Counted from the stretch's first letter, positions 32,949-57,195 are shown. The stretch: DNA of 64,000 nt from an uncultured Eubacteriales bacterium (GCA_934373635.1 CAKROZ010000005.1:20356-84355), one strand, 5' to 3'. Made by a program: numbers and translations. Notes: a model not told the origin generated them from the letters alone.

Positions 32949-32986
32949 AGAATCATTCATCATTCATCATTCTTAATTCTTAATTC
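32949..32986 (-). repeat. AT-rich heptamer array (GAATTAT)n, site 1
   Basis: The minus strand reads GAATTAA GAATTAA GAATGAT GAATGAT GAATGAT. It starts 4 nt after the def stop. Confidence 0.8.
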
Positions 32987-32989
32987 GCC

Positions 32990-33448
32990 TTATTCTTCGT
33001 CCGCCGAGCGGATCTCGACGTCGGTAAAGAGCTTCCCGTCGAGGTGGTCGCACTCGTGGCAGATGGCACGGGCGAGAAGGTCGGAGCCCGTCAGGTCATA
33101 GCTCTTCCCTTCCCTGTCGGTCGCGCGGACGGTGACGGTGCGGGGGCGGGAGGTGACGCCGTAGTGCCCCGGGATGGAGAGGCATCCTTCCGCCTCCTCC
33201 TGATGTCCCGAATAGGCGATGATTTTCGGGTTAATCATTTCATAGACTTTGCCGTTCTCGACCTCAATGACGACGACGCGGCGCAGAACGCCGACCTGCA
33301 CGGCGGCGAGCCCGCAACCGTTTGCCTGCCGCATGGTTTCGGTCATGTCGTCGAGAAGCTGAAGAATACGCGGGGTGATCGCCTCGACGGGGCGGGAGAC
33401 CTTTCGCAGCATGGGGTCGCCGTATTTTACGATTTTCAGAGTTGCCAT
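32990..33448 (-). CDS. def: Peptide deformylase
   Basis: GCGLAAVQVG, EGCLSIPG and HECDHLDG motifs. Confidence 0.95.
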   Translation of the reverse strand: MATLKIVKYGDPMLRKVSRPVEAITPRILQLLDDMTETMRQANGCGLAAVQVGVLRRVVVIEVENGKVYEMINPKIIAYSGHQEEAEGCLSIPGHYGVTSRPRTVTVRATDREGKSYDLTGSDLLARAICHECDHLDGKLFTDVEIRSADEE

Positions 33449-33519
33449 AATGGCTCCTTTCTTGTTCTCCGTGCGGGAGGGCGGATGTGATGGTGCCTTT
33501 GACCTTGCGGGGGCGGGAA

Positions 33520-33586
33520 GAATTCGGAATTCAGAATTATGATCAGAATTATGAATTAAGAATTATGAATTAAGAATTATGAATTG
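33520..33586 (+). repeat. AT-rich heptamer array (GAATTAT)n, site 2 (~10 units)
   Basis: GAATTCG GAATTCA GAATTAT GATCA GAATTAT GAATTAA GAATTAT GAATTAA GAATTAT GAATTG. Confidence 0.85.
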
Positions 33587-33598
33587 AAAATGTCGAGA

Positions 33599-33919
33599 GG
33601 TGGGTCGATGGCGCGGGGGGCTTTGATCTCGAGGATGGTTTCGGAGATGTGCTTTTTCGGAACGTGGTGGGTTGATGGCGCGGAGGGTGGTCTCGAGGAT
33701 GGTCGCGAAGATGTTTTTAGGTCGCGAGGGGGCGAGGCGATAGCGCGGGGGGTGGTCTCGAGGATGGTCGCGAAGATGTTTTTAGGTCGCGAGGGGACGG
33801 GTCGATGGCGCGGAGGGTGGTCTCGAGGATGGTTTCGGAGATGTGCTTTTTCGGAACGTGGTGGGTTGATGGCGCGAAGTGTTTGGTCGCGGGAACGGTC
33901 TCGGGATGTATTTTGTCAG
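33599..33919. repeat. Tandem array of ~65-bp units (4 full copies and 1 degenerate copy) between priA and def
   Basis: Units start at 33599, 33666, 33731, 33795 and 33860. There are two subtypes in the order a-b-b-a-partial. All begin GGTGGGTCGATGGCGCGG... and no unique spacers separate them. Confidence 0.8.
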
Positions 33920-36171
33920 ACCGTCAGGGGGTTCAGGTCGATGGCGAGGGCGACGGATTTTTTATCGGCAAAGGTGAGAAGAATTTCGTGAAAAAGTCTT
34001 CTTGTTGTCTTGTTTAGTTTACATTTTACGACCATACGGAGGCGGAAGCGGTCATTGAGCTTATAGACCTGCGCCTCGAAGGGTCCGTAGACGACAAAGG
34101 GGTAATTTTTATAGGGATCGACGGTGAGCTTTTCTTTCAGGTAAGAGGTCAGTTGCTCGGCTGCGGAGAAGAGCTCCTCCTCGCACTCTGCGGACAGGGT
34201 GATCTGCACCATGTCGCAAAAGGGAGGATAGGAGAGCTCCCGCCGTAAGGCGATCTCTCCTTCATAGAAGGCGTCGTAGTCCTGCTTACAGGCGAGGCGA
34301 ATGATCTCGTTGTCGGGAGAGTAGGTCTGAATGACCGCGCGCCCGGCATCTCCCGCTCTCCCTGCCCTGCCGATAACCTGCGTGAGGAGGGAGAAGGTGC
34401 GCTCCGAAGCGCGAAAATCGCTGACATAAAGAGAGGTATCCGCCAACACGACACCGACCAGCGTGACCTTCGGGAAATCGTGTCCCTTCGTCACCATCTG
34501 CGTGCCGAGGAGAACGTCGGCGTGTCCCGCGCGAAAGTCCTCGAGCATACGGTCATAAGAGAATTTCTCCCCCGTAGTGTCGGCATCCATGCGCATGACG
34601 CGGGAATCGGGCAAGAATTTCGAAAGGTCGCCCTCCACCCTTTGCGTCCCGTAGCCGAGATAGGAGAGGTGCTCTCCTCCGCAGGAGGGGCAGACCTTCG
34701 GCGGCGGCTCACTGTGTCCGCAGAGATGGCAGAGCATCCGTCCGCCGCCTCTGCCCGTATGATAGGTCAGGGAGACCGAGCAACGCGGACAGGTGATAAC
34801 GTCTCCGCAGCTCTTACAGCTGATCTGGCTGTTATAGCCGCGGCGGTTCAGAAAGAGGATCGCCTGTTTTTCCTTCTCCGCGACCTCGGACAAGGATTCG
34901 AGCAGGCGGCGGCTGATCGGTGAGGAGTTGCCGAGGCGAAGCTCCTCACGCATATCGACGATCACCGCCTCGGGCAGGCGGGCACCGCCGTAGCGCTCCC
35001 GCAGAGGGATGAGGGTATATGCCCCTTCCTTGGCTTTATAAAAGCTCTCGACGGAAGGGGTGGCGGAGGCGAGAAGCATCAGGGCGTTATGCCGCCCCGC
35101 ACGGTAGGCAGCGACGTCACGCGCGTGGTACTTCGGATCACTCTCGGATTTATAGGTATGCTCATGCTCCTCGTCAATGACGATCATACCGAGGTTCGGG
35201 ATCGGGGAGAAGACGGCGGAGCGCGTCCCGATCACGAGATCGACGGCGCCCGCGCGAATCCTGCGATAGGCATCGAGCCGTTCCCCCTGCGATAAAGAGG
35301 AGTGAATGACGGCGACCCGCTCCCCGTACCGACGGCAGAAGATCTGCACGGTCTGGGGCGTCAGGGCGATCTCGGGCACCATCATAATGACGGTCTTGCC
35401 GAGGGCGAGGGTACGGTCGATGAGTTTCATGATGACCTTGGTCTTCCCGCTTCCCGTCACGCCGTACAAAAGGGCGGCGCGGGGGGCGTCCTCGGTAAGA
35501 AGTGTGTCCGCCGCGCGGTAGGCGGTCATCTGCGCATCGCTGAGGTTGATCTCGGAGGTATCCCTCTCCCCTGCGAGTGCCGCATAGGGATTCCGGAGCT
35601 CCTCCTCCGTATCGACACGCAGAATCCCCTTCTCGGTCAGTGCCGAGAGGTGCGCCGCCGTGACCTCGGGCAGGGCGCGGAGCAATTCCCCGTCCGCCTC
35701 GCCGATGGGCAAAAGATACTCGAGAATGCGGCGCTGTCCCTCACTGCGCACGCCCTTTCGCCCCGAGGCGGCAAGGAGCGCGCGGGTCTCCTCTTCCGAG
35801 AGGGTGAGGGTATAGCGCTTCCGATAGCGGATGTTGGGGCTCTCGGTCATGGCGCCCGGGGGAAGGACGGTACGCACCGCCTCGCCGAGGGTGCAGAGCG
35901 TATATTCCTTCAGAAACAGACAGAGCCCGAGCATTTCCTCATCGAGAAAATAGCGGTCGTCAAGAACCGCCTGCACGGGCTTTGTCCTCGGGCTGTCGGT
36001 CGTGTCCTTTACGTTCAGGACGACGCCGAGGCGCATATGATTTGCCGCGCCGAAGGGCACACGCACGAGAGCCCCCGGACGGAGCTTCCCTGCGAGGGCG
36101 GGCGGGCAGAGATAGTCGAACGGGCGGTCGAGTGCGTGCGGGGCATCTGTCAGGCAGACCTCACAATACAT
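33916..36171 (-). CDS. priA: Primosomal protein N' (replication restart helicase)
   Basis: LLYGVTGSGKT (Walker A), VIDEEHE (DEAH-like), and a Cys-rich Zn region CKSCGDVITCPRCSVSLTYH...CHLCGH...CPSCG. Confidence 0.92.
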   Translation of the reverse strand: MYCEVCLTDAPHALDRPFDYLCPPALAGKLRPGALVRVPFGAANHMRLGVVLNVKDTTDSPRTKPVQAVLDDRYFLDEEMLGLCLFLKEYTLCTLGEAVRTVLPPGAMTESPNIRYRKRYTLTLSEEETRALLAASGRKGVRSEGQRRILEYLLPIGEADGELLRALPEVTAAHLSALTEKGILRVDTEEELRNPYAALAGERDTSEINLSDAQMTAYRAADTLLTEDAPRAALLYGVTGSGKTKVIMKLIDRTLALGKTVIMMVPEIALTPQTVQIFCRRYGERVAVIHSSLSQGERLDAYRRIRAGAVDLVIGTRSAVFSPIPNLGMIVIDEEHEHTYKSESDPKYHARDVAAYRAGRHNALMLLASATPSVESFYKAKEGAYTLIPLRERYGGARLPEAVIVDMREELRLGNSSPISRRLLESLSEVAEKEKQAILFLNRRGYNSQISCKSCGDVITCPRCSVSLTYHTGRGGGRMLCHLCGHSEPPPKVCPSCGGEHLSYLGYGTQRVEGDLSKFLPDSRVMRMDADTTGEKFSYDRMLEDFRAGHADVLLGTQMVTKGHDFPKVTLVGVVLADTSLYVSDFRASERTFSLLTQVIGRAGRAGDAGRAVIQTYSPDNEIIRLACKQDYDAFYEGEIALRRELSYPPFCDMVQITLSAECEEELFSAAEQLTSYLKEKLTVDPYKNYPFVVYGPFEAQVYKLNDRFRLRMVVKCKLNKTTRRLFHEILLTFADKKSVALAIDLNPLTV

Positions 36172-36198
36172 CCTTCTCCTCCGTTCTTTTCCTGTGAA

Positions 36199-36468
36199 TT
36201 ATTCCGCGGCGGCGGGATGATGAATGCGGAATCTGCCGTCCTGAAGTCTCGCGATGGCGATCTTTACCGCCTTCTGATCCTTGTACTCGGGGTCGATGAG
36301 GGCGGAGAGGGGCTTATCCGTCTCGCGGTTGTCGATCAGGCGCTGTGCTCTCACACGCATGGCGACGTATTCGTCGGTGACGATGCGCGCGCATTTTGCG
36401 ACGGCAACGACAAGCTCGTAACGGTTGAATTCGCCTTTGGTCAGCTCATCAATGGTAGGATAGATCAT
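36199..36468 (-). CDS. rpoZ: DNA-directed RNA polymerase subunit omega
   Basis: Trimmed to ATG 36468 (AAGGAGAA RBS). MIYPTIDELTKGEFNRYELVVAVAKCARIV is typical of Firmicutes RpoZ. Confidence 0.8.
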   Translation of the reverse strand: MIYPTIDELTKGEFNRYELVVAVAKCARIVTDEYVAMRVRAQRLIDNRETDKPLSALIDPEYKDQKAVKIAIARLQDGRFRIHHPAAAE

Positions 36469-36559
36469 GATATTCTCCTTTTTCGGATGAAGTTTTCGTT
36501 TTCTTTCGGGGAAGTGCTGTCCCTCGCGAAGGAGGGGAGTCGTCGGGGGTACCGATCGG

Positions 36560-36829
36560 TTATTCCTCGTCCTCGTCGTCCTCGTCGGTGTCATCGTCAC
36601 TCGAGAGACGGTTGGTGATGGTCTCCGCCTGAATGGCGGAAAGAATGACGTGCTCGGAATCGGTGATGATGACCGCGCGGGTACGTCTGCCGCAGGAGAC
36701 GTCGATGATACGGTTATCCTCCTTCGCATCCTGCACAAGGCGTTTGATCGGTGCGGAATCGGGTCCCGCGATGGCGATGATCCGCCCCGCCGACACCATA
36801 TTGCCGAAGCCGACATTGATAAATTTCAT
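36560..36829 (-). CDS. remA: RemA/DUF370-family regulatory protein
   Basis: Trimmed to ATG 36829. Reads [36 protein letters not shown]...[13 protein letters not shown], with an acidic tail. Confidence 0.8.
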
Positions 36830-36863
36830 ATTCTTTCTCCGTTCCGCCGCAACGCGGCGATCG

Positions 36864-37754
36864 TTATTCGATATTCTGCACCTGCTCGCGGATCTTTTCA
36901 AACTCGCCCTTGACGGCAACGACGAGTCTCGCGATCTCCGCGTTGTTTGCCTTCGAGCCGACGGTATTGATCTCGCGGTTCATCTCCTGCATCAGGAAAT
37001 CGAGCTTTCTGCCCGAGGGTTCTTTCAGTGCGGCAATCTCATCGAAGGCATCGAAGTGCGAGCGAAGCCTGACGAGCTCCTCATCAATCGCGATCTTGTC
37101 GGCGAAGACGGCGCACTCGGTGAGCAGACGCCCTTCGTCGGGGGTAACACCCGCGTCCCCGAGGATCGCGCGGAGGCGGGTCTCGAGCTTCTCGCGGTAG
37201 CCGACGGTATCGGCGGCGCTTAGCTTCTCCACGGTGTCGACGTAGGTGCGCACCGTCTCGAGTTTCTTTTTCATATCCTCCGCCGCGCGGGCGCCCTCTG
37301 CCGTGCGCATCGCGACATAGCCCGCGATCGCCTCGTCGAGGACGGGACAAAGCTCTTCCCACGCCTCGGTAAGATCGGCATCCTCCCGCTTCGTGCGGAA
37401 GACGGCGGGATTTTTCGCCACGGTCATGACGGAGATGTCGTCGGCAAGCCCGTACTCGTCGCGAAGACGGGCGAGCGCCGCGAGATACCCTCCGAGATAG
37501 GCTTCATCGAGAAGCACCTCGCCGTTCCCCTTCGCGTGCTCTTCGACGGTGATGTAGACGTCGATCTTCGCACGGGAGACGGCAGTCTCGCGAATGCGGT
37601 TCTTGATCTTCTCTTCGAGGAAGAGATAGGAATGCGGGAGCTTGACCGAGCAATCGAAGAAGCGGGAATTGACGCTCCGAAGCTCTACGGTGATGTCCCG
37701 TGCCTCGCCCTCGTGCTTTGCCCTGCCGAAGGCGGTCATGCTTTTCATCATCAC
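36864..37754 (-). CDS. yicC: YicC/YloC-family stress-induced protein (endoribonuclease)
   Basis: SMTAFGRA...[11 protein letters not shown] at the N-terminus. [23 protein letters not shown]...[10 protein letters not shown] at the C-terminus. Confidence 0.85.
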
Positions 37755-38302
37755 GATTTCTCCGTCGGGTCAGGCGTCCGAGCCGTCGTGTCTTCCCCGT
37801 TTTCTTTGGTAGTTTCTTCCGTTTGTTTTTTTCCTGCGCTCTTCCCTTTGCGTTTGCCCCGCCCGCGGCTCAGGGAGCGGATCTCCTCCATGAAGGAGTC
37901 GATGTCGGTAAACTCGCGGTAGACCGACGCGAAGCGGATATAGGACACGATGTCGATGTCGCGCAGGCGCTGTAAGACCATCTCGCCGATGTCGTGCGAG
38001 GTGACCTCGTTGACAATGGAATTCTGGAGCTCCGCCTCGATAGACGCCGCGATGACCTCCGCGTTGACGGGTCGCTTCTGACAGGCGCGCTGGATGCCGA
38101 GCATAAGCTTATGCTTATCGAAAAACTCGTGCTTCCCGCTCCGCTTCACGACGTCGATCGGAACGGTATCGACGACCTCGTAGGTCGTAAACCGCTTCCC
38201 GCACATGGGACATTCCCGCCGCCGCTTGATACTGGCGTCGTCGTCCACGGGGCGCGAATCCAACACGCGGGAATCGTGATAATTGCATACCGGACACTTC
38301 AT
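37751..38302 (-). CDS. nrdR: Transcriptional repressor NrdR
   Basis: MKCPVCNYHDSRVLDSR...CPMCGKRFTTYE Zn-ribbon followed by an ATP-cone. Has an extra K/E-rich tail. Confidence 0.92.
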   Translation of the reverse strand: MKCPVCNYHDSRVLDSRPVDDDASIKRRRECPMCGKRFTTYEVVDTVPIDVVKRSGKHEFFDKHKLMLGIQRACQKRPVNAEVIAASIEAELQNSIVNEVTSHDIGEMVLQRLRDIDIVSYIRFASVYREFTDIDSFMEEIRSLSRGRGKRKGKSAGKKQTEETTKENGEDTTARTPDPTEKS

Positions 38303-39613: not shown

Positions 39614-39621
39614 TTTTGCCT

Positions 39622-40276: not shown

Positions 40277-40305
40277 GATAATTAAGAATTATGAATTATG
40301 AATTG
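40277..40305 (+). repeat. AT-rich heptamer array, site 3
   Basis: GATAATTAA GAATTAT GAATTAT GAATTG, 14 nt upstream of the rpiB-like ATG. Confidence 0.8.
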
Positions 40306-40440
40306 TCTTCATTCTTGCTTTGTTTTGTTGACGCGGAGTGTTTTTTGGAGGGAGAGGGCGAGGCTTGAAGAGGAAGTGTCGCTTACTCCTCATCCACCGT
40401 TTCGCGGTCCCCCTGTCTCGCTACGGCTCGGGTTCACTTG
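40306..40440 (+). repeat. Composite intergenic module B, copy X
   Basis: TCTTCATTCTTGCTTTG..TTGTTGACGCGG...GCTTACTCCTCATCC...CCCCTGTCTCGCTACGGCTCGGGTTCAC. Aligns with 41915-42045. Confidence 0.6.
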
Positions 40441-41871: not shown

Positions 41872-41914
41872 GAGAATTGATAATTATGAATGAAGAATTA
41901 TGAATTATGAATTG
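41872..41914 (+). repeat. AT-rich heptamer array, site 4
   Basis: GAGAATT GATAATTAT GAATGAA GAATTAT GAATTAT GAATTG, 67 nt upstream of the aspS ATG. Confidence 0.8.
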
Positions 41915-42045
41915 CCTTAATTCTTGCGTTGGGCTGTTGACGTGGGGATGAGGGGGAGATGAGGGGGCGTTGACGGGAGGATGTGCGATTCCTTGCTTAC
42001 TTCTCATCCTTCAGTCGTAGGCTGACCCCTGTTTCGCTGCGGCTC
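41915..42045 (+). repeat. Composite intergenic module B, copy Y
   Basis: CCTTAATTCTTGCGTTGGGCTGTTGACGTGG...GCTTACTTCTCATCC...CCCCTGTTTCGCTGCGGCTCGGGCAC. Confidence 0.6.
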
Positions 42046-42130
42046 GGGCACACTCGGGCTCTTTCATTTCGGCGGTGTGAGATTCGGTGCTCTCGTGACG
42101 CTCTCTTACTCGTAGGAGAAGGCTTAGATA

Positions 42131-45734: not shown

Positions 45735-45763
45735 ATTATACTATAGATAAGCAATGATGTCAA
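45735..45763 (-). promoter_or_regulatory. Promoter of the secreted-protein gene
   Basis: The minus strand reads TTGACA-17 nt-TATAAT. This implies a ~190-nt 5' leader. Confidence 0.55.
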
Positions 45764-45948
45764 GTGGCAAGTTAGACAAAATTCAGCACTTTAATTTGTT
45801 TGTTTTGCCGATTTCCCTTGAGAAGTCGCTCTTTTGAGTTGTAAACTTTTCAAGATGCGGGCGCTTCGCGTTGACAACGGGGCGGGGATGTGGTATACTT
45901 CCCAAGAAGAAGTTCCTTTTCAAGGACCTACGAAAGGACAGGCTTTCT

Positions 45949-46656: not shown

Positions 46657-47198
46657 TTCGTGATCTTACCGTGCGGGTCAAGCCGCAAAACAAGTGTGCG
46701 CACACGTTGTGCATCGTTTTTCTCGCTCTTGCGGCGGCGGGATTCATCGCTTCGTTTTCCGTGCCTTTGTACCGCGGGATCATTCAGCTTTTTGCCGCGA
46801 TCCTTATCGTGGCGGCGCTGACGGTCTATGCGCGCTATATCGGAGCGAAATATTCTTACGAGATCTTCACCGACGGCGGGGAGGGCGAGCCCCTCTTCAT
46901 CGTGCGGCAGGAGACGGGAAAGCGCATCAGTATTCTTTGCCGTGTCGCGCTCGCGGGGATGTCGGAAATCGTCCCCCTCTCCATGAAGGAGGCAAAAGAA
47001 AAAGCGAAGAGCTCGGGGGCTCATCGCTATCTTTACACGCAGACGCTCTTCCCTGCCCGCGTGTATTATGTCAAGGTACGCACGCGACACGAGAAAGCCG
47101 ATCTGATCCTTGAGGGGTCGGAGGAGTTTTTTGAGATGTTGAAGCTTGCGGCGGGGGAGGCGGCGATGCTTTATCCGCCGTTTGCGGAGGAAGAATGA
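46653..47198 (+). CDS. Two-TM membrane protein (bacterial PH-like architecture, tentative)
   Basis: ATGA overlap with the upstream gene. Two TM helices followed by a soluble domain (YSYEIFTDG...LFIVRQETGKRISI). Confidence 0.5.
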   Translation: MIRDLTVRVKPQNKCAHTLCIVFLALAAAGFIASFSVPLYRGIIQLFAAILIVAALTVYARYIGAKYSYEIFTDGGEGEPLFIVRQETGKRISILCRVALAGMSEIVPLSMKEAKEKAKSSGAHRYLYTQTLFPARVYYVKVRTRHEKADLILEGSEEFFEMLKLAAGEAAMLYPPFAEEE

Positions 47199-47234
47199 GA
47201 TAATTATGAATTATGAATTATGAATTATGAATTT
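47199..47234 (+). repeat. AT-rich heptamer array, site 5
   Basis: GATAATTAT GAATTAT GAATTAT GAATTAT GAATTT. Starts at the base after stop codon TGA 47196-47198. Confidence 0.85.
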
Positions 47235-47309
47235 GGTGCTAAGCGGGCGACCGTCTTGTAAATATTATGAAAAAATTTGAATTCCGAACATGAGGTGAAG
47301 ACAATTAGA

Positions 47310-47666
47310 ATGGACAATCTGATTCTTGATAAAAGCAAGGCGTTTGCAGTGCGTATCGTAAACCCCTATCGACATTTGGTTGCAGAAAAGCACGAATTCA
47401 CCTTGGCAAAACAAATACTGAAAAGCGGCACGAGCGTTGGTGCAAATTGCAGAGAAGCAATCAGGGCGCAAAGTACAGCGGATTTCATATCGAAAATGAA
47501 TATCGCCTTAAAGGAAGCCGACGAGACGGCATACTGGCTCGAATTGCTCCGCGAGACCGATTACCTGACGCAGGAACAATACGAAAGTATTTATGCCGAT
47601 TGTCAGGCGCTCATCAAATTGCTTTTCAGTATTGTAAAAACGACAAAAATTAAAGTGCAGAATTGA
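47310..47666 (+). CDS. Four-helix-bundle protein (23S rRNA intervening-sequence protein / Avd-like family)
   Basis: Trimmed to ATG 47310. AKQILKSGTSVGANCREA...SKMNIALKEADETAYWLELL is the family signature. Confidence 0.8.
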   Translation: MDNLILDKSKAFAVRIVNPYRHLVAEKHEFTLAKQILKSGTSVGANCREAIRAQSTADFISKMNIALKEADETAYWLELLRETDYLTQEQYESIYADCQALIKLLFSIVKTTKIKVQN

Positions 47667-47807
47667 TTCAAACCGCCGCATCACCATTACCGGTGGTAAT
47701 GTGATGACTTCATTACTGCTTCACTCCCATCAGTGAAAACGCGATAGCTCCGACTCATTCTGATTTTAGAAAAAAGTATGATACAAAAAGAGCACCGCAT
47801 GAAGTAA

Positions 47808-47850
47808 GATCATTCATAATTCATAATTCATCATTCATAATTCTTAATTA
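47808..47850 (-). repeat. AT-rich heptamer array, site 6 (inverted relative to site 5)
   Basis: The minus strand reads TAATTAA GAATTAT GAATGAT GAATTAT GAATTAT GAATGATC. It contains the stop codon (47844-47846) of the next gene. Confidence 0.85.
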
Positions 47851-48377
47851 AAATAGCTTTTTGGGGTGAATTTTTTTATTAGGGTGCGGAGGCGCGGGGT
47901 GGTGTCGAAGAGGACGGCGGCGCTTTTGCCGTTTTCCGCGAAGCGGAGGAGGACGGTGGAGTCTGCGGTTTTTGACGAGGAATAGTCGTAGAAACGTCCC
48001 TCCGTGTCGGCGCGCTCCTCGCGCGGGGTCCTGCCGTCGTAGGCGCCTTCGGCGTCCTGCGTGCGCAGGGTGAGCATCGGTCGAATCCCCTTCTTCGGCT
48101 TTCTGCCCGACCGGCAGTAGAAGGTGAGCGTCCCGCTCTCAAAGGTGACGTAAATATCGTAGGAGACGCAGCGCCACGTGAAGCAGACGAGGATCCACAG
48201 AAGAAGCGGGGCAACGGCGAAAAACGGAACGAGGCGGGAGAGATAGCAAACGAGGAAAAATCCGGCGAAAAAGGTGACATAGAGAAGAACCAAGAGGACG
48301 GCGTGAAAAAGAAGCCTGCCCTCTTTTTTCTTTGTGTAGGAATAGTCGGCGTGATTCAGTGCTTCGGCATCGAACAT
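47844..48377 (-). CDS. Two-TM membrane protein (bacterial PH-like architecture, tentative)
   Basis: 177 aa. Two TM helices followed by YDIYVTFESGTLTFY.... Confidence 0.5.
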   Translation of the reverse strand: MFDAEALNHADYSYTKKKEGRLLFHAVLLVLLYVTFFAGFFLVCYLSRLVPFFAVAPLLLWILVCFTWRCVSYDIYVTFESGTLTFYCRSGRKPKKGIRPMLTLRTQDAEGAYDGRTPREERADTEGRFYDYSSSKTADSTVLLRFAENGKSAAVLFDTTPRLRTLIKKFTPKSYFN

Positions 48378-48399: not shown

Positions 48400-50394
48400 T
48401 CAATCTTTGTTTGTATTTTCTTCGTTTTCTTCCGATGTTTCGGCTGTCGGCTCTTCGGTCGAGCCGTCCGACGTGGCTTCGCTTGACTTCTCTACCATCT
48501 GCATTTCCTCCGACTTCTCCGCCTCGGCATTGACCTCCTCGGGGGAGCGGTAGGTGGGAACGACGCGCTTCATCGCGGCGACGACCGACTTCGCCTCGAT
48601 CTCACCCTCGGCGGCGGCAACCGCCGCCTTCAGGATCGCGATCTTCTCTTCGATTTCGGCTCTGGTATAGGGGGTATCGCGCTCGACGAAAATCATGCGG
48701 TTCTCGGTCTTGGTGAGAGTCTCTGTTTTCATGAGAAGCTCTTCATAGAGCTTTTCGCCCGGGCGGAGTCCCGTTTCGACGATATCGATGTCCTGATAGG
48801 GGATCAGCCCCGAGAGGCGGATCATGTTCTCGGCAAGCTCGATGATTTTCACGGGTTTGCCCATATCGAGGACGAACAGCTCACCCTTCTTCGCCATGGC
48901 GCCCGCCTGCATCACGAGTCCCGACGCCTCGGGGATCGTCATGAAATAACGGATGATGCGTTTATCCGTCACGGTGACGGGTCCGCCCGCCTCGATCTGC
49001 CTGCGGAAAAGAGGAATGACCGAGCCGTTGCTGCCGAGGACGTTTCCGAATCTTACGGCGGCGAAGGCGGTCTCACTGTCGGTGCGGCACTGGATGATCA
49101 TCTCGCACATGCGCTTGGACGCGCCCATCACGTTGGTCGGGTTGACCGCCTTATCGGTGGAGATGAGGATGAATTTCTTGACGCCGTACTTCTCCGCCAT
49201 ATCGGCGGTATTGTAAGTACCGAGGCAATTGTTCTTGATCGCCTCCTGATTGCTGTGCTCCATCAGGGGGACGTGCTTATGTGCCGCGGCGTGGAAGACG
49301 ATCTCGGGGCGGTAGAAGGCGAACACCGCGTCAAGGCGGTTGCGGTCCCTGACCGAGCCGATCTCGACCGCGAGGTCGAGGGAGGCGCCGTACTTGCGGG
49401 TCAGCTCCTGCTGAATGTCGTAGGCGTTGTTCTCGTAAATATCGAAGATGATGAGTTTTTTCGGTGCGAGCTTCGCGATCTGACGGCAGAGCTCACTGCC
49501 GATCGAACCGCCGCCGCCCGTGACGAGGACGGTCTTCCCCGTATAGAAGGCGCGGTTGGCTTCGTCATTGACGTTCAGGGAATCGCGGAAAAGAAGGTCC
49601 TCGATCTTGATCTCTCGAAGGACGCGGCGACCGCCCTCCTCACGGCGGGCATCGCCCTCCTTGAAGGGAACGTCATAGAGCTTGATCTTACAGCCCGTGG
49701 GCGCGTAAAACTCGTGGATCCTCTGCGCGGTGGCGCTGTCGATCGAAGGGAGGGCAACGAAGATCTCGGCAACGGGCAGTGTCTTCAACAATGCGAGGGT
49801 GTGGCGCGACTCGGCATAGACGCGGACGCCCGAGACGAGGCCGCCGACCTTATCGACATTCTTATCAATGAAGCAAACGGGATAGTAGTGGGAATTCGGA
49901 TTATAGATCAGCTCCTCGGCGAGCATGGCGCCGACCTGCCCCGCGCCGATGATGGCGACGCCGATCTTATTCATCTCGAGGGTCGCGGTATTCGCGTGGC
50001 GATAATACTGCTGATAGACGAAGCGGGAGGCGAGCGTCACCATATCGAGTGCGGCGATGACGGACGCGCTCGGCCAAAAGCCGAGGTAGGCAAAGGGGAT
50101 CATCGAGGAGATCAGCAGTGCGACCGCGCCGCCGAAGAAATCGGCGCCCATCAGGGCGAGATAGCTCCGCGAGTTCGCATACCGCCACACGTCGGCATAG
50201 ACCGCGAAGATCACGCGCGCGCCGAAGATACAGACGGCAAAAAGCAGGACGCTGATCGCATAGCCGCCCGCCTCCAAAATGGCACCGCCCGCGGTGACGG
50301 AGGACAAAATGTTGGCGATTACGTAAACAACGATGTACATCAAGAGGTCAATTGCCGCAAGAAGCTGTTTCCGTTTATTCTTAATCAGATTCAT
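48400..50394 (-). CDS. Membrane-bound nucleotide-sugar 4,6-dehydratase (CapD/PglF/WbpM-like)
   Basis: N-terminal TM helices, two Rossmann regions (VAIIGAGQVG and VLVTGGGGSIGSEL), and an acidic C-terminal tail. Confidence 0.88.
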   Translation of the reverse strand: MNLIKNKRKQLLAAIDLLMYIVVYVIANILSSVTAGGAILEAGGYAISVLLFAVCIFGARVIFAVYADVWRYANSRSYLALMGADFFGGAVALLISSMIPFAYLGFWPSASVIAALDMVTLASRFVYQQYYRHANTATLEMNKIGVAIIGAGQVGAMLAEELIYNPNSHYYPVCFIDKNVDKVGGLVSGVRVYAESRHTLALLKTLPVAEIFVALPSIDSATAQRIHEFYAPTGCKIKLYDVPFKEGDARREEGGRRVLREIKIEDLLFRDSLNVNDEANRAFYTGKTVLVTGGGGSIGSELCRQIAKLAPKKLIIFDIYENNAYDIQQELTRKYGASLDLAVEIGSVRDRNRLDAVFAFYRPEIVFHAAAHKHVPLMEHSNQEAIKNNCLGTYNTADMAEKYGVKKFILISTDKAVNPTNVMGASKRMCEMIIQCRTDSETAFAAVRFGNVLGSNGSVIPLFRRQIEAGGPVTVTDKRIIRYFMTIPEASGLVMQAGAMAKKGELFVLDMGKPVKIIELAENMIRLSGLIPYQDIDIVETGLRPGEKLYEELLMKTETLTKTENRMIFVERDTPYTRAEIEEKIAILKAAVAAAEGEIEAKSVVAAMKRVVPTYRSPEEVNAEAEKSEEMQMVEKSSEATSDGSTEEPTAETSEENEENTNKD

Positions 50395-50422
50395 AATTCA
50401 TTTGCCTTTCGATGATAATTTG

Positions 50423-51774: not shown

Positions 51775-53106
51775 ATGAAGATCCGTTTGTCCGACCATTT
51801 CACCACGTCGCGGCTGTTGCGATTTACCTTCCCTTCCATCGTGATGATGGTATTTACCTCGATCTACAGCGTGGTGGACGGTCTTTTCATCGCCAACTGC
51901 GTGGGGAGCAACGCGCTCTCCGCCATCAATATCATTTTTCCCGCGCTGATGATCCTCGGCGCCTTCGGCTTTATGCTCGGTGCGGGGGGCAGTGCGGAGG
52001 TCGGGCGGGCACTCGGCGAGGGAAAGCCCGAGCTCGCAAAGAAATACTTTACGACGCTGATTCTGACCATCGTCTTCCTCGGGGCTCTCCTTTCCGCGCT
52101 CGTGTTTCTGCTCATCCGTCCGATCTCGGTGCTCCTCGGTGCGACCGACCTGTTGATCGACGACTGCATTATTTACGGGCGGATCCTCGCGGCGGGGAAC
52201 GTATTCTTCATGCTGCAATCCGCGTTTCAGACCTTCTTTGTCCTTGCGGAAAAGCCGAAGCTCGGTCTTCTCTTCACCGTGGCATCGGGACTGACGAACA
52301 TCGTCTTTGACTTTGTGTTCGTCTACCTTCTCGAGATGGGAGTCGCGGGTGCCGCGACCGCCACGGTGATGGGGTACGCGGTCGGAGGGGTGATTCCGCT
52401 CTTCTATTTCCTCTCGAACAACGACAGTCTGCTCCGCTTCACGAAGACCGAGATCTACCCGAAAATGCTCCTTTCGAGCGCGGCGAACGGCTCCTCCGAG
52501 ATGGTATCGAACATCTCCTCCTCGGTCGTCACCATGCTTTACAACTTGCAGATGCTCCGTCTGCTCGGCGAGGGAGGCGTCGCTTCCATCACCGTCATCA
52601 TGTACATCAATTTCATCTTTGTTGCCGTCAACATCGGCTTTGCCATCGGGGCGGCGCCCGTCGTCAGCTATCATTACGGCGCGCAAAACACGGCGGAGCT
52701 GAAAAACGTATTCAAGCGAAGCCTCGGCATCATCGGGATAGTCTCTCTTATCATGTTCGTCTTGGCGGAGGCGCTCTCTTCCCTCTTGATTTCTCTGTTC
52801 CTTTCCTCCGACCCCGAATTTGCGGCAATCTCTCTGCACGGGCTCCGCGTGGCGTCCTTCTCTTTCCTTCTCGCGGGGGTGAATATTTATGCGTCCTCCT
52901 TCTTCACCGCGCTCTGCAACGGCAAGATATCCGCGATCATCTCCTTCCTTCGCGCGTTGGTCTTCCCCGTCGCGGCGCTCCTGACGCTTCCCTATCTTTT
53001 CGATGTGGAGGGCGTCTGGTTTTCCCTCGTATTATCGGAAGCGCTCGCCTTTGCCATTTCGGTGTTCTTCCTCATTTTTGAGAAGAAAAAGTATCAATAT
53101 GTATAG
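51775..53106 (+). CDS. MATE-family efflux transporter
   Basis: Start at ATG 51775 (AAAGGAG RBS). RLLRFTFPSIVMMVFTSIYSVVDGLFIANCVG is a MATE N-terminus. 12-TM pattern. Confidence 0.9.
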   Translation: MKIRLSDHFTTSRLLRFTFPSIVMMVFTSIYSVVDGLFIANCVGSNALSAINIIFPALMILGAFGFMLGAGGSAEVGRALGEGKPELAKKYFTTLILTIVFLGALLSALVFLLIRPISVLLGATDLLIDDCIIYGRILAAGNVFFMLQSAFQTFFVLAEKPKLGLLFTVASGLTNIVFDFVFVYLLEMGVAGAATATVMGYAVGGVIPLFYFLSNNDSLLRFTKTEIYPKMLLSSAANGSSEMVSNISSSVVTMLYNLQMLRLLGEGGVASITVIMYINFIFVAVNIGFAIGAAPVVSYHYGAQNTAELKNVFKRSLGIIGIVSLIMFVLAEALSSLLISLFLSSDPEFAAISLHGLRVASFSFLLAGVNIYASSFFTALCNGKISAIISFLRALVFPVAALLTLPYLFDVEGVWFSLVLSEALAFAISVFFLIFEKKKYQYV

Positions 53107-53125
53107 AATTCTTTGCATTTTATAT

Positions 53126-53164
53126 AAAGCCCCCGTGTGCAATCAAATTGCACACGGGGGCTTT
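53126..53164. terminator. Bidirectional terminator (MATE / pepF)
   Basis: AAAGCCCCCGTGTGCAAT-CAA-ATTGCACACGGGGGCTTT. Confidence 0.7.
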
Positions 53165-53225
53165 ATGAATTTGTTTTTTATCGATGGACGTATTTTTTTG
53201 CTGTTGTCCCTGCCTTCCGGAGGAT

Positions 53226-55001
53226 TCAAAGCGCCTCGAACTCTTCGAGTGCCTCTTTGAAGGACACCATGCAGGCGTCGAAGGCGGTGCGCTTCGTGAG
53301 GTCGACGCCCGCGAGCTTCAGAAGCTCGACGGGGCTGTCGCTTCCGCCCGAGGAGAGGAAGCGGAAGTAATCGCGAACGGCGGGCTCGCCCTCTTTCAGG
53401 ATGCGCTCGGCAATGGAGACGGCGCTGATGATGCCCGTCGCGTACTTATAGACATAGAAGCCGCGGTAGAAGTGCGGGATTCTCGCCCATTCATAGGCGA
53501 TCATGGGATCGGAGACAACCGAGCGACCGTAATACTTTTTATTGAGGTCGAGGTAGACGGCGTTCAGCGAGTCGGTGGTGAGGGGCTGTCCCTTCTCTGC
53601 CATATCGTGGGCGATATACTCGAACTCGGCGAACTGTGTCTGACGGAAGAGGGTGCCTTTCAGGGTATCCATATAGTAGGAGAGAAGGTACTTTTTGAGC
53701 TTCTTATCCTCGGTGGTGGCGAGAAGGTACTTGATGAGAAGGATCTCGTTGACGGTGCTCGCGACCTCGGCGACGAAGATCTTATACTGCGCCTTCTCCT
53801 GCGGCTGATTCCTCTCGGAATGATAGGAGTGCATGGCGTGTCCGAGCTCATGGGCGATGGTGAAGATGTCCGACGTGGTCTTCTGATAATTGAGAAGGAC
53901 ATAGGGGTGCTTCAAGCCGTAGACGCTGATGCTGTACGCGCCACTCCGCTTCCCTGCCGTCTCCTCGACGTCGATCCAGCGGTTGTCGTGTGCCTCGTCA
54001 AGCAGCTTTCCGTACTCTTCGCCGAGGGGAGCGAGTCCCTTCTTCACCAGGCGGAAGGCATCCTCGTATTCGAGCTGCATCTCCGCGTTCTCGACAAGGG
54101 GAGTATAAACATCGTACATATGGAGAGAGGAGACGCCGAGAATCTTCTTTCTGTCGCGGAAGTAGCGGTGAAGAAGGGGGAGATTCTTATGAACGCTCGC
54201 CAAAAGGTTCTCGTACACCTTGGTATCGACGTCCTCTTCGGCAAGGGCGCGTGCGAGGGAGGAAGGGTACTTTCTCGCCTTGGCGAGGAAGACATCCTTA
54301 TCGACGTTTCCGACATAGGCGGCGGTGATGGTATGGATGAGTCCGATATAGGCTTTATAGTAGGCTTCAAACACCGTGCGGCGCACCTTGCGGTCGGGCG
54401 ACCGAAGGAGGACGCCGTAGAGTCCGTGGGTGAGGGTGGTCTTCTCGCCGTTCACCTTCACGGTCGGAAAGGGGAAATCGGCGTTGTCGATCATCGAGTA
54501 GATCGTATGGAAGCCCTCGAAAATTCTGCCCTCTTGGGAGAGGACCTCCTCGGTCTCGCGGGAGAGGACGTGGGGCTTTTGCTTCAGGATCAGGCGGAGG
54601 GTATAATCGTAATCGGAGAGCGCGGGATCCGCCATCATCTCCTTCAGGGTCTTCTCGGGAAGAGCGGAGAGCTCGGGAGTGATGAACGCCGCCGCGCCCG
54701 AGAGCTTCATACCGAGCATATCGACGCGGGAGGTGAGGGCGGTATATTCCGCATTTCTCGTATCCTGATCCCGGAGCATGAAGGCATAGACATCCAGGCG
54801 CATGAGCCCGAGCATGGCGCGGTTCAGCTTCGTCATGCAGGAAAGGAAGCTCTCGCGGTCGCCGAGCTTACCCTCGAATTCGGAGAGGTCGCACAGATCG
54901 GATACCTCCGCGTAGGTCGCCTCAAACTCTTCCTTGTTCTCGAAAATATCCTCGACGCGCCATTTGAGGTGCTCGGGAATCTGATCTCTTTCTTTTGCCA
55001 T
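53226..55001 (-). CDS. pepF: Oligoendopeptidase F (M3B)
   Basis: 591 aa with the HELGHAMHS zinc motif. Confidence 0.9.
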   Translation of the reverse strand: MAKERDQIPEHLKWRVEDIFENKEEFEATYAEVSDLCDLSEFEGKLGDRESFLSCMTKLNRAMLGLMRLDVYAFMLRDQDTRNAEYTALTSRVDMLGMKLSGAAAFITPELSALPEKTLKEMMADPALSDYDYTLRLILKQKPHVLSRETEEVLSQEGRIFEGFHTIYSMIDNADFPFPTVKVNGEKTTLTHGLYGVLLRSPDRKVRRTVFEAYYKAYIGLIHTITAAYVGNVDKDVFLAKARKYPSSLARALAEEDVDTKVYENLLASVHKNLPLLHRYFRDRKKILGVSSLHMYDVYTPLVENAEMQLEYEDAFRLVKKGLAPLGEEYGKLLDEAHDNRWIDVEETAGKRSGAYSISVYGLKHPYVLLNYQKTTSDIFTIAHELGHAMHSYHSERNQPQEKAQYKIFVAEVASTVNEILLIKYLLATTEDKKLKKYLLSYYMDTLKGTLFRQTQFAEFEYIAHDMAEKGQPLTTDSLNAVYLDLNKKYYGRSVVSDPMIAYEWARIPHFYRGFYVYKYATGIISAVSIAERILKEGEPAVRDYFRFLSSGGSDSPVELLKLAGVDLTKRTAFDACMVSFKEALEEFEAL

Positions 55002-55023
55002 GGGTTTCTATCTCCTTTTTATT

Positions 55024-56208
55024 TTATTCGTTCGGGGTGTGCTCTTCGGAGGAGTCCTCCTCGGAGGTACGGGGCTGTGTTTTCCCCGGGAGGCGGACAT
55101 CGAGTCCGTTCAGCTCCACGCCGCCGTCGGCGCGGATAAGCAGGTAGGTGACGCCGCCGATCTCCTTTGTCGACACGCGGTCGGACGCGCCGGGGGCGAC
55201 GGTAATCTTCACGTCGGGGGTGCGAAGCTCGAACTTCGAGGCTTCGACAAGGTTCTTCGGCGAGAGGTAGCCGTTCCCGAATTCTTCGGTATAGCGAGCG
55301 GTAAAGGCTTCAAGCCTCTCTTCCCCGATGCCCGTGTCCGAGAGAATCTCGCGCACGGTATTCGCGGAGACGGTTAGGGGTTCGGGATTCTTCGTCTCCT
55401 TATGTACGAGGATCCTCTCGCGCAGCTCCTCGTGGATGGCGCGGATGCGCGGGAGGGTACACTCCTCCTCGAGGGTATCGGCGAGAACGGCACGGAAGGC
55501 TTTCCCCTGTTCCCTCGCGGGCATGGGGATGCTCTTTTTGAAGATCGCGTCGGTGAATGCCTCGTGAGAGTCTTCAAGGCTCTTGGTATAAAGGAGTGCA
55601 TTGTAAATATTTGTTTGCCTTCCGTCGAACGCGGGGAACAAAAAGCCGAGGGTCGGCGGGGTAATGGCGTTGGTACCGAGGAGATCGGCGAAGGATTTTT
55701 CTTCCTCGTTATAGGAGAGGGTGGACTTCGTGGATTTGACGGGGCAGATCGCCGAGACGAGGTAGGTATACATCTCGGTGGAATCGCCCGCGTCCTCGCC
55801 GTCCTTCTGTTTTTTCACCACGTCGTAGGCGGCACAGCCGAGCAGAATGACGAAGTTGTCCTCCGACGGGACGCTCGCGGCGACGCGGGAAAAGAAGGTA
55901 TTGCGGGCGCTCTCGTCCTCGAGGCGCGTCTTTCTCAGGGTCATGAGAAGTCCGTGCTCTTCCCCGCCCGCGACCTGCGAGTTGGAAAAAGGGATGTCGA
56001 TGAGGTTGCGGTAAGGGGTGCCCGTCAGGACGCGGCGGAAAATGGCGAGATATTTCTCGCTCTCCTCCTCTCCCATGAGGGCGAAGGAGCGGCAGAACTT
56101 CGCGATAATCTGCCCTTCGGCATTGACGTAACAGCCGTAAACGGCGGGGATCGTGCTCCGCTCGGGGCGGAGGGTGCGCCGCACTTCGGCGATTTCTCTT
56201 TCGTTCAT
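55024..56208 (-). CDS. DUF4317-family protein
   Basis: Trimmed to ATG 56208. The ~394-aa size and the N-terminus MNEREIAEVRRTL...CYVN are typical of this Clostridia family (recognised from memory). Confidence 0.6.
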   Translation of the reverse strand: MNEREIAEVRRTLRPERSTIPAVYGCYVNAEGQIIAKFCRSFALMGEEESEKYLAIFRRVLTGTPYRNLIDIPFSNSQVAGGEEHGLLMTLRKTRLEDESARNTFFSRVAASVPSEDNFVILLGCAAYDVVKKQKDGEDAGDSTEMYTYLVSAICPVKSTKSTLSYNEEEKSFADLLGTNAITPPTLGFLFPAFDGRQTNIYNALLYTKSLEDSHEAFTDAIFKKSIPMPAREQGKAFRAVLADTLEEECTLPRIRAIHEELRERILVHKETKNPEPLTVSANTVREILSDTGIGEERLEAFTARYTEEFGNGYLSPKNLVEASKFELRTPDVKITVAPGASDRVSTKEIGGVTYLLIRADGGVELNGLDVRLPGKTQPRTSEEDSSEEHTPNE

Positions 56209-56369
56209 AGTCTGTTCCTTTGGTATCCGTCTTTTTGAATTTCTACCATAGTATAGCACATTTTTGCGGCTTTGTGTAGGGGGTATTTGAATTTTTTACA
56301 TTTTTAACGGCAAAGGCAACGTAATATCGATGCGAATCTCGAAATTGCTGAACACATGAAGGCTCCTCC

Positions 56370-56398
56370 TTGACTTTTTCCGTATGATGAGGTATACT
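56370..56398 (+). promoter_or_regulatory. trmO promoter
   Basis: TTGACT-17 nt-TATACT. Confidence 0.5.
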
Positions 56399-56474
56399 TA
56401 ACACGAAGCACGTGAGACCTGAGGATTTATTTTTCTCTAACAGATTTTTACGATAGGAAAAGGATTGCTTGAAT

Positions 56475-57191
56475 ATGTGTAAAATCCGAAATGTGCCCAT
56501 GAGAGAACCACTGAAGATCATCGCGACGATACGAACGGGGTACAAAGAAAAATTCGGGATCCCGCGGCAGAGCGGAATTGCGGACGAGGCGATCGGAGAG
56601 ATCGTCTTTCTGCCCCCTTACAACCGAGCTGAGGCGGTGCGCGGCATCGAGGGCTTCTCGCACCTCTGGCTCCTCTGGGAATTCTCCGAGGCGAAGCGGG
56701 AGGGATGGTCGCCGACGGTGCGACCGCCACGGCTCGGAGGAAATCGGCGGGTCGGTGTCTTCGCCACCCGCTCCCCCTTCCGTCCGAATCCGATCGGGCT
56801 CTCTTCCGTGCGTCTTCTCGGCGTGGATGATCGCACCGAGGGTCCCGTCCTGCGGGTGGCGGGCGCCGACCTCCTCGACGGGACGCCGATCTACGACATC
56901 AAGCCATATCTCGCCTACACCGACGCGCATCCCGAGGCGGTGGGCGGTTTTTCCGACGGGGTGAGGGATCACGCGCTCCGCGTCGAATTCCCGACGGAGC
57001 TTGCGCAAGGGGTGCCCGAAGACATCCGCGAGGTATTTCTCACAATCCTTCGGAACGACCCGCGTCCTGCCTACCAAGAGGACGACGACCGCATTTATTA
57101 TTCGGACTACGGCGAATATGAGGTCGCGTTTCGCGTAACGGGAGGCGTCGCCGTGGTGACGGATTTGAAAATTAAGAATTATGAATTATGA
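56475..57191 (+). CDS. trmO: tRNA (t6A37-N6)-methyltransferase TrmO (TsaA/YaeB family)
   Basis: FGIPRQSG, FSHLWLLWEF, FATRSPFRPNPIG and DGTPIYDIKPY motifs. The start is ambiguous (56469, 56475 or 56499). The last 7 codons lie in heptamer array 7. Confidence 0.85.
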   Translation: MCKIRNVPMREPLKIIATIRTGYKEKFGIPRQSGIADEAIGEIVFLPPYNRAEAVRGIEGFSHLWLLWEFSEAKREGWSPTVRPPRLGGNRRVGVFATRSPFRPNPIGLSSVRLLGVDDRTEGPVLRVAGADLLDGTPIYDIKPYLAYTDAHPEAVGGFSDGVRDHALRVEFPTELAQGVPEDIREVFLTILRNDPRPAYQEDDDRIYYSDYGEYEVAFRVTGGVAVVTDLKIKNYEL

Positions 57192-57195
57192 ATTG
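57168..57195 (+). repeat. AT-rich heptamer array, site 7
   Basis: AAAATTAA GAATTAT GAATTAT GAATTG. Encodes KIKNYEL plus the TGA stop of trmO. Confidence 0.8.

Follow-up and report, generated by a model that had tools for sequence, protein, structure and literature searches.

Heptamer arrays at gene boundaries of an uncultured Eubacteriales bacterium as probable terminal repeats and gene-less copies of an S23p-type cassette

In a 64,000-nt stretch of DNA from an uncultured Eubacteriales bacterium (GCA_934373635.1 CAKROZ010000005.1:20356-84355, hereafter the window), seven gene boundaries are occupied by tandem arrays of a 7-bp unit, GAATTAT. These arrays were pointed out in an earlier note, made from the sequence alone, which did not recognise them as a described REP, MITE or insertion-sequence end. 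The locus raises the question of what such arrays are and how they came to be there. We suggest that they are probably the terminal repeats, and gene-less copies, of an S23p-type cassette, in which a gene of the PF05635 family is enclosed by inverted 7-bp arrays. One complete cassette (site 5, the gene and site 6) is present in the window, and sites 1-4 and 7 would represent solo arms.

The repeat family at gene boundaries is genuine. When the window was searched for GAATTATGAATTAT with at most two mismatches, 29 matches were obtained, compared with 0.23 expected from shuffled sequences; 28 of them lay inside the seven sites, the remaining one, at 23125, being an isolated two-mismatch match. 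Tandem Repeats Finder gave a period of 7 for every site (10 copies with 73% matches at site 2). A period-7 detector, which scores self-similarity only, whatever the unit, and requires about three good units, returned precisely the seven arrays and one weak TTCTTTC run at 20381 over the whole 64 kb. The positions and strands assigned to the arrays in the earlier note were thereby confirmed, as were the unit variants GAATTAA, GAATGAT and GAATTCG and a core, AAGAATTATGAATTATGAATTG, common to sites 3, 4 and 7. Calling the arrays AT-only was wrong, since a G occurs in each unit and a C in several; they are AT-rich islands within DNA of about 58% G+C. All seven are intergenic or overlap stop codons only. 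Neither the 14-mer search nor the period-7 detector found an array in 1-20 kb, 20-32.9 kb or 57.2-64 kb of the window, in agreement with the claimed absence of copies from the prophage (none in 1-20 kb), and no array occurred in the 9 kb past the window end.

Two of the arrays, sites 5 and 6, are inverted with respect to each other and enclose a gene that had gone unnoticed. Its product matches Pfam PF05635 with E = 9e-27 and TIGR02436 with 110.9 bits against a cut-off of 24; the family goes under the names 23S rRNA intervening-sequence protein, S23p and four-helix-bundle protein. Among PDB structures, 2RLD, of a B. thetaiotaomicron protein, is a close match (E = 2e-54) and 2GSC, the S23p protein XCC0516, a distant one (E = 0.003). 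When positions 47185-47865 are folded, sites 5 and 6 pair as the terminal stem in the minimum-energy as well as in the centroid structure (z = -4.2), and their complementarity extends over 31 nt with an inverted-complement score of 57, as against a median of 19 between loci. Pfam and NCBIfam detected no transposase domain in the protein, and it matched no PADLOC defence-system model. No second PF05635 copy is present in the window (best other six-frame match, E = 2.6). The cassette is not inserted in a 23S rRNA gene; it lies between open reading frames (ORFs) of 181 and 177 aa, and no rRNA was found in the window. The arrays at sites 5 and 6, left unrecognised previously, are the inverted ends of a PF05635 cassette, and the arrays as a whole belong to the described class of intergenic heptanucleotide arrays.

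The enclosure of PF05635 genes by such arrays is widespread. We collected 80 metagenome loci selected solely for encoding a relative of the cassette protein (53-66% identity); the comparative loci are short stretches, many of them metagenomic. Among assessable loci, an array lay within 200 nt of the gene on its upstream side in 62 of 73 and on its downstream side in 60 of 70. One side or both had an array in 61 of 63 loci, and both sides in 44 of the 63. Gaps adjoining the gene contained an array in 62 of 75 cases (83%) as compared with 7 of 45 other non-coding gaps of the same loci (16%), which corresponds to an odds ratio of 26 (p = 3e-13), the control gaps being longer on average. Similar arrangements were found on viral contigs and plasmids: arrays flanked all five viral relatives, down to 42% identity, and were present at 11 of 12 loci on plasmids from cultured members of the Bacteroidota, Bacillota, Spirochaetota, Cyanobacteriota and Chloroflexota (Bernardetia, Monoglobus, Treponema, Euhalothece, Nostoc, Dolichospermum, Pseudanabaena, Planktothrix, Chlorohelix and Gloeocapsa).

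The repeated unit varies from locus to locus (AATTCAT, AATTGAC, AATGCGG, TAAAGTG, CGTAATG, GACAGTT, AAAAATT and others). On plasmids it includes ACTGGTC and the G-rich cyanobacterial AATCCCC (GGGGATT on the other strand), the latter flanking a PF05635 gene on a Planktothrix plasmid. Despite these locus-specific units, the downstream array is the reverse complement of the upstream one: the median inverted-complement score was 48 where both flanks belonged to one gene, as against 19 where they came from different genes, and the 95th percentile of cross-locus pairs was exceeded in 47 of 64 loci. On the sense strand, the units of the 5' arm follow a consensus AAT(T/G)NNN (frequencies A.95, A.97, T.89, T/G.56/.40, then N, N, N), to which the 3' arm is complementary. 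A typical arm is about 32 nt long, i.e. 4-5 units. The units of the window cassette (AATTATG on the left, CATTCAT or AATTCAT on the right) fit this consensus. Related units are carried by proteins that are 84-100% identical; therefore, gene and arms descend together.

Taken in a wide sense, the arrays are not confined to the window; confinement to it was an outcome that the earlier note had listed as contrary to its reading. Genome stretches containing one exact 19-mer, GAATTATGAATTATGAATT, number more than 119 and come from Bacteroidota, Lentisphaerota, Cyanobacteriota, spirochaetes, Planctomycetota, Chloroflexota, Patescibacteria and Clostridia, the 19-mer often lying beside arrays of other heptamers. 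Arrays occur in three forms, namely solo arrays, inverted pairs 16-130 nt apart and inverted pairs 410-570 nt apart, and most pairs of the last kind hold a PF05635 gene. Among small ORFs adjoining AATT-type arrays, PF05635 was the sole recurrent family (five cases), the others being unrelated and mostly housekeeping. Gene-less arrays are also related to the arms of the cassette residing at the same locus, with which 23 of 41 share a repeated 7-mer, as compared with 5.2% between loci; the five solo arrays of the window all do so. Nearly all PF05635 genes thus have arrays, but the gene accompanies only a few per cent of arrays, a ratio that resembles the one between autonomous elements and their gene-less derivatives.

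Solo arrays and cassette arms in the window are alike in further respects (Table 1). At all seven sites, the GAATTAT strand has its 5' end on the side of the adjoining gene: at sites 1, 5, 6 and 7 this end overlaps a stop codon or lies 0-3 nt from it, and at sites 2-4 it lies 14-72 nt from a start codon. The opposite, inner ends face non-coding DNA of 75-514 nt. Within 0-2 nt of the inner end, a junction CTTAnTTCnTGCG is present at the solo sites 1, 3 and 4 as well as at the arm in site 6. A composite repeat of about 170 nt is present twice, at sites 3 and 4, and is made up of the array, the junction, a spacer with TTGACG and a module, rich in G+C, of about 55 nt; over 57 nt, the two copies are 86% identical. 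Two genes even have their stop codons supplied by an array, the TrmO-like gene by site 7 and the 177-aa ORF by site 6. Each array marks the outer edge of a non-coding stretch, with its outer end on the gene boundary; according to the proposed reading, solo arrays would descend from cassettes.

Table 1. Heptamer arrays, cassette gene and possible remnant in the window
Feature	Position	Strand	Units or content	Outer side or gene context	Inner side
Site 1, gene-less array	32949-32986	minus	GAATTAA x2, GAATGAT x3	3 nt past def stop codon	faces 211-nt spacer before fmt; junction CTTATTTCTTGCG at 32938-32950
Site 2, gene-less array	33520-33586	plus	about 10 units	72 nt upstream of def start codon	faces five 65-nt tandem repeats
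Site 3, gene-less array	40277-40305	plus		14 nt upstream of rpiB-like start codon	junction at 40307-40319; end of composite repeat of about 170 nt extending to about 40432
Site 4, gene-less array	41872-41914	plus		adjoins -35 box of aspS promoter	junction CTTAATTCTTGCG at 41916-41928; end of second composite copy of about 170 nt extending to about 42048
Site 5, cassette 5' arm	47199-47234	plus	(AATTATG)x5	begins right after 181-aa ORF stop codon	
Cassette gene	47310-47666	plus	118 aa, PF05635 (23S_rRNA_IVP), TIGR02436		
Site 6, cassette 3' arm	47808-47850	minus	inverted relative to site 5	holds stop codon of convergent 177-aa ORF	junction CTTACTTCATGCG at 47796-47808, motif as at solo sites
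Possible degenerate remnant	50385-50405	minus	about 1.5 units, GAATTATGAAT; weak evidence	capD-like gene start	
Site 7, gene-less array	57168-57195	plus	encodes last 7 codons (KIKNYEL) and stop codon of TrmO-like gene		faces 288-nt convergent spacer

Gene assignments around the arrays were taken from Pfam, NCBIfam and gene calls on matching contigs. On the left, fmt and def, both read leftwards, are separated by site 1, and site 2 precedes def, with priA further on. In the middle, site 3 precedes the rpiB-like gene and site 4 precedes aspS, both genes again being read leftwards. The rightward 181-aa ORF, site 5, the PF05635 gene in the same direction and the inverted site 6 are followed by the 177-aa ORF and the capD-like gene, read in the opposite direction, and on the right a rightward TrmO-like gene runs into site 7. 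The two-unit remnant claimed near the start of the capD-like gene is plausible as regards its 11-nt match GAATTATGAAT on the minus strand, but the match is weak and falls below the two-mismatch 14-mer threshold.

By its AspS, which is 97% identical to that of a 'Clostridiales bacterium' MAG, the genome falls among uncultured Clostridia. The age of the arrays was assessed in strains of the same species and in related species, within-species sampling covering the same locus in other strains and the 9 kb past the window end. In other strains of the same species, arrays occupy the same sites and differ in the number and kind of their units; the unit content of site 2 differs in strains L120, L121 and L122, and site 4 measures 28, 40 and 64 nt in three strains. 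Two relatives, L208 and L209, whose AspS proteins are 84-85% identical to that of the window, have kept the gene order, and no heptamer array was found in 21 kb of either, save for a weak A-rich run in an nrdR-like gene of L208. Their junctions are compact: 35 and 51 nt between aspS and rpiB (255 nt in the window), 39 and 21 nt between priA and def (467 nt), and 12 and -4 nt between def and fmt (252 nt). Therefore, the arrays arrived together with extra non-coding DNA after the lineages had split, and sites 1-4 are lineage-specific insertions. Following their entry into this Clostridia lineage, after its split from the relatives with 84-85% identical AspS, the arrays would have multiplied in the genome, at least partly inside the composite repeat; at present, units are being gained, lost and replaced in them through slippage and recombination.

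Unit number and type that differ among strains at fixed sites would also be expected of plain simple-sequence repeats, arisen by independent slippage at AT-rich seeds, with the PF05635 gene merely captured or retained alongside. Most arrays are indeed gene-less, and heptamers are over-represented among the long simple-sequence repeats of many bacteria, for which a polymerase-footprint explanation has been proposed (PMC4692102). However, slippage alone explains neither the inverted pairing of the flanks nor the consensus AAT(T/G)NNN across phyla, nor does it account for the shared inner junction, the fixed polarity and the 170-nt copies at sites 3 and 4. The arrays are moreover AT-rich in a genome of 58% G+C, stand inside junctions that measure 12-51 nt in the relatives, and show a 26-fold enrichment beside the gene over other non-coding gaps. 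We therefore regard slippage alone as quite unlikely.

Alternatively, the arrays could be cis-regulatory DNA sites, similar to operators or UP elements, for def, the rpiB-like gene and aspS, whose expression would be tuned by unit number; the four-helix-bundle protein, or else a nucleoid protein, might bind to such sites. Three arrays do lie upstream of start codons, and the distances noted previously, 14-72 nt, hold (72 nt for def, 14 nt for the rpiB-like gene, 67 nt for aspS). UP elements act upstream of the -35 box, and site 4 has just that position. Variable unit number is reminiscent of phase-variable promoters, and the units of solo arrays recur in the arms around the resident gene. Against this, four of the seven arrays are situated at the 3' ends of genes, the same housekeeping genes function with compact, array-free junctions in relatives, and the neighbours of arrays in other phyla have no common theme apart from PF05635. 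As for aspS, its strong promoter, TTGACT-N17-TATAAT at 41871-41843 on the minus strand, lies outside the site 4 array, which abuts the -35 box from upstream, and is present without the array in relative L208; therefore, the promoter predates the array. The promoter-like geometry TTCATA-N17-CATAAT, which the earlier note read in the ATAATTC strand, exists at sites 2, 4, 5 and 6, but it attains 9 of 12 consensus matches only, and matches of this quality are near chance (14 found, 8.7 +/- 2.8 in shuffles). The caution that a simple promoter role was not established was thus justified; on the basis of the promoter scan and of the array-free L208, we rejected the array as a promoter in general, and the whole cis-regulatory explanation appears unlikely.

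Selection might also act at the RNA level, with the arrays serving as RNase III processing sites, terminators or translation insulators. The cassette arms form a duplex of about 31-35 bp, and RNase III cleaves the stems of intervening sequences (IVSs) in which this gene family occurs (PMC4990558). At site 1, an AU-rich hairpin of -21.2 kcal/mol (z = -4.65), followed by a U-rich tract and located between def and fmt, is suggestive of a terminator. Every site has stops in all three frames on one strand or the other, and sites 2, 3 and 5 have them on both; together with the two stop codons supplied by arrays, this could be taken as a sign of insulation. Yet other solo sites (2, 3, 4 and 7) fold no better than shuffled sequences, only site 1 being significant, so that solo arrays as hairpins were rejected except at this site. 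None of 31 terminator-like sites detected in a terminator scan coincided with an array, and no Rfam family reached its gathering score in the whole window, or even E <= 1 over 32.5-58 kb. Three-frame stops, which the earlier note had rightly read in the unit (TGA on the GAATTAT strand, TAA on the other), are not enriched in the family: 37% of arrays have them on one strand and 27% on the other, as compared with 44% and 42% in unit-permuted controls, and we rejected them as a selected feature. Both the promoter-like geometry and the three-frame stops are by-products of the GAATTAT unit. Finally, mismatches within paired arms are of the G:U type in 42 and of the A:C type in 40 cases, i.e. without RNA-type bias, and many are G:A or also A:A, the abundance of G:A being due to the independent choice of T or G at unit position 4. 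Since there is no excess of G:U, we see no sign of pairing kept specifically in RNA, and RNA-level selection on arm pairing was rejected. Symmetry of the arms looks instead like a property of the DNA, or a result of conversion between arms. An RNA-level function as the reason for the arrays is thus very unlikely, even though, by analogy with rRNA intervening sequences, paired arms in a transcript may be cut by RNase III.

We thus return to the arrays as ends and gene-less copies of cassettes, against which several observations also weigh. To the folding of the solo sites and the lack of RNA-type bias in arm mismatches can be added that no target-site duplication is visible and no direct repeat stands outside the arms, and that a six-frame search revealed no gene remnant beside the solo arrays of the window, so that their descent from cassettes is inferred rather than shown. 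The PF05635 gene was found beside only 5 of about 200 AATT-type arrays (119 stretches), and arrays in the window are concentrated within 24 kb, with none in the following 16 kb. No catalytic motif is known for the cassette protein. Near-identical cassettes mostly occupy orthologous loci and thus give no sign of recent transposition. Searches with the 177-aa ORF and with close alleles met with filled sites only, and flank searches between locus sets yielded no usable pair of filled and empty sites. In orthologous pairs, the orientation was always the same, and frequent inversion between arms was rejected.

One allele of the cassette gene deserves separate mention. In L207 (ENA ERZ27263843), the gene (protein identity 89%, DNA identity 86%) has the opposite orientation and adjoins the conserved 181-aa ORF (95% DNA identity), the gene on its far side being different. 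This suggests replacement of the cassette or rearrangement through its arms, and not a clean inversion.

Comparison with known systems helps to place the cassette. A close likeness is offered by the 23S rRNA IVSs with an ORF in Coxiella, Leptospira and Brucella. They encode S23p, of the same PF05635 family, and consist of a small ORF inside terminal inverted repeats that form a long stem. In Coxiella, this terminal stem of 28 bp is cut by RNase III, and the S23p ORF is preceded by two to three strain-variable GACAGAT heptamers (PMC4990558). Strain-variable tandem heptamers by the ORF are thus a shared feature, and horizontal transfer is suspected in both systems. The cassette would then be the same kind of ORF-plus-inverted-repeat unit. 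It differs in its position between protein-coding genes, and not in helix 25 or 45 (nor 9) of 23S rRNA, in arms made up wholly of heptamer units, and in the presence of gene-less copies of the arms.

Heptanucleotide arrays themselves have been described repeatedly, as STRR in Calothrix and Nostoc, GGGAATC in Xanthomonas, GGGGA(T/C)T in Nostoc and TAACTGA in Beggiatoaceae, cyanobacteria and Bacteroidetes (PMC4692102, PMC4679880). According to these papers, such arrays have a period of 7, are intergenic, number from a handful to about 190 per genome, often abut start or stop codons, and often form inverted pairs (70 in X. campestris); their length varies among close relatives, and relatives free of the repeat have shorter junctions. 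The arrays in the window resemble these arrays and differ in their unit, GAATTAT, and in their host, a Clostridia member of 58% G+C. In both papers, G-quadruplex or translational roles were proposed for the known arrays, the authors stating that neither a function nor a mechanism of transfer is known, and in the text and supplement parts covered, neither paper links the arrays to PF05635. One connection can be made from the PMC4692102 supplement, in which the GGGAATC array no. 15 of Xanthomonas overlaps the annotated start of XCC0516, i.e. of the S23p protein whose structure is 2GSC. This protein is a homopentamer (PMC4990558).

As for mobile repeats, the cassette can be compared with REP/REPIN sequences and RAYT genes, reportedly described in Nunvar 2010 and in Bertels and Rainey 2011. 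In both systems, a short repeat flanks a low-copy gene in inverted copies, many singlets and inverted doublets without the gene are dispersed in intergenic regions, repeat type follows gene lineage, and inheritance of the gene is mostly vertical, its locus being fixed. However, the gene in the window encodes a helical bundle of 118 aa, not a Y1 transposase of the IS200/IS605 type, and no catalytic activity is known for it; its repeat is a tandem 7-bp array and not an imperfect palindrome of 20-40 nt. MITEs, or miniature inverted-repeat transposable elements, are similar to the arrays as short non-coding inserts at gene boundaries with inverted ends in the paired forms and with lineage-specific proliferation, and the two copies of about 170 nt would also fit. 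Their ends are fixed inverted repeats, in contrast to variable tandem arrays; solo sites have an array at one end only, sites 3 and 4 with their shared 170 nt have no inverted ends, copies are not near-identical, and no parent transposase is known. The possibility, raised previously as contrary to a new family, that the arrays map to the ends of a known insertion sequence (IS) or MITE was thus borne out in part: two of them do end a known element, which is neither an IS nor a MITE. Finally, the cassette protein has the same fold and belongs to the same superfamily as Avd, the accessory protein of diversity-generating retroelements, PF05635 resembling Avd by the comparison of PDB 4DWL with 2GSC (PMC10053308). 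The Avd model NF033474 matches the window protein with E = 4e-4 and 20.6 bits, below its cut-off of 80. The gene is a stand-alone one with heptamer arms, and no reverse transcriptase gene, template or variable repeat is located nearby.

If the arrays are ends and copies of the cassette, they would be selfish or neutral dispersed repeats and not regulatory sites of the host, and the protein would be expected to have a role toward them. A broader model may be put forward tentatively, as possible but doubtful in its entirety: PF05635 proteins would be trans-acting partners of heptamer arrays, each lineage binding, maintaining or spreading its own AAT(T/G)NNN arrays, and one cassette family would account both for the origin and horizontal spread of heptamer repeats (in Cyanobacteria, Bacteroidota, Xanthomonas, Beggiatoaceae, spirochaetes and Clostridia) and for the ORF-bearing 23S IVSs. 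Such a partnership may resemble that of RAYTs and REPINs, with a non-enzymatic, Avd-like, putatively nucleic-acid-binding protein in place of the transposase. As pure speculation, an arm of about 32 nt (4-5 units) and a homopentamer would be compatible with one unit per subunit.

According to this evidence, three unexplained observations that have long stood apart, namely heptamer arrays (first noted in Calothrix and later reported to be over-represented in many genomes), IVS S23p ORFs and the very common genes annotated as four helix bundle protein, belong to one phenomenon. If this holds in a full census, a concrete and testable candidate would be at hand to explain how heptamer repeats arose and spread horizontally, a protein family of many thousands of members would obtain its first functional context, and a frequent cause of contig breaks and altered gene ends would be flagged. 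For the window, the practical message is modest: its arrays are recent, variable insertions and not conserved regulatory sites. Already known are the class of intergenic heptamer arrays and the ORF-bearing 23S IVSs with S23p. In the searchable literature, outside which most subscription journals lie, no link between PF05635 and heptamer arrays appears beyond the remark on Coxiella, and systematic enclosure of PF05635 genes by inverted heptamer arrays has no prior statement there, although an earlier description may exist.

Several further observations were made on the cassette genes and on the arrays. Six plasmid relatives, those of Monoglobus, Dolichospermum, Pseudanabaena, Planktothrix, Chlorohelix and Gloeocapsa (L219, L224-L228), lie on the same strand as their neighbours within operons. 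Several of these operons are of a defence type (hsdS-gene-hsdR, DrmD-gene-PglX, csx2-gene-cas1, helicase-gene-methylase and DUF1156-gene-HEPN), the contexts being type I restriction-modification, DISARM/BREX-like and CRISPR-Cas systems. Contigs with the cassette gene are often only 0.5-3 kb long, and two of them (L204 and L206) end in or beside an array; arrays thus appear to break short-read assemblies. In other genomes, GAATTAT arrays may adjoin, without a gap, arrays built of different heptamers, namely GAATGCT (on the opposite strand), CCCCTCG or CTCCTGT/CTCCTGA. Examples of such compound arrays are found in Lentisphaeria (L009, L029, L093 and L109) and in Microcystis (L019), and in L029 the entire compound block is repeated several times across about 300 nt.

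Non-coding DNA next to the arrays contains repeats of its own. The G+C-rich dispersed repeat of about 55 nt (CCCGAGCCGYAGCGARACAGGGG...GGTGGATGAGGAGTAAGC) is located 100-135 nt inside sites 3 and 4, at 40381-40432 and about 41975-42048 on the minus strand. Its number in these spacers ranges from one to three among strains (it is also present in L121, L122 and L207), and one copy lies within the cassette of the L207 allele. The spacer between priA and def is filled, at 33593-33915, by five tandem G+C-rich units of 65 nt adjoining site 2; in strain L120 this spacer measures 273 nt, which fits about two such copies, and in L122 it measures 171 nt. Downstream of site 1, in the spacer between def and fmt (32864-32938), two T-rich copies of 27 nt start 48 nt apart, each followed by a stretch containing TTGAC or TTCAC, and these might serve as a new fmt promoter after the def-fmt expansion.

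Away from the arrays, the spacer between a gene of 1035 aa and the next operon contains two near-perfect divergent promoters of the sigma-70 type, at 45735-45763 (minus) and 45871-45899 (plus), which read TTGACA-N17-TATAAT, and TTGACA-N17-TATACT with a TG extension. The only tRNA gene found, tRNA-Ser(GCT) at 20030-20121 on the minus strand, borders a stretch of low G+C content (45-50% in 14-20 kb), a position consistent with integration, at a tRNA gene, of the prophage mentioned in the earlier note.

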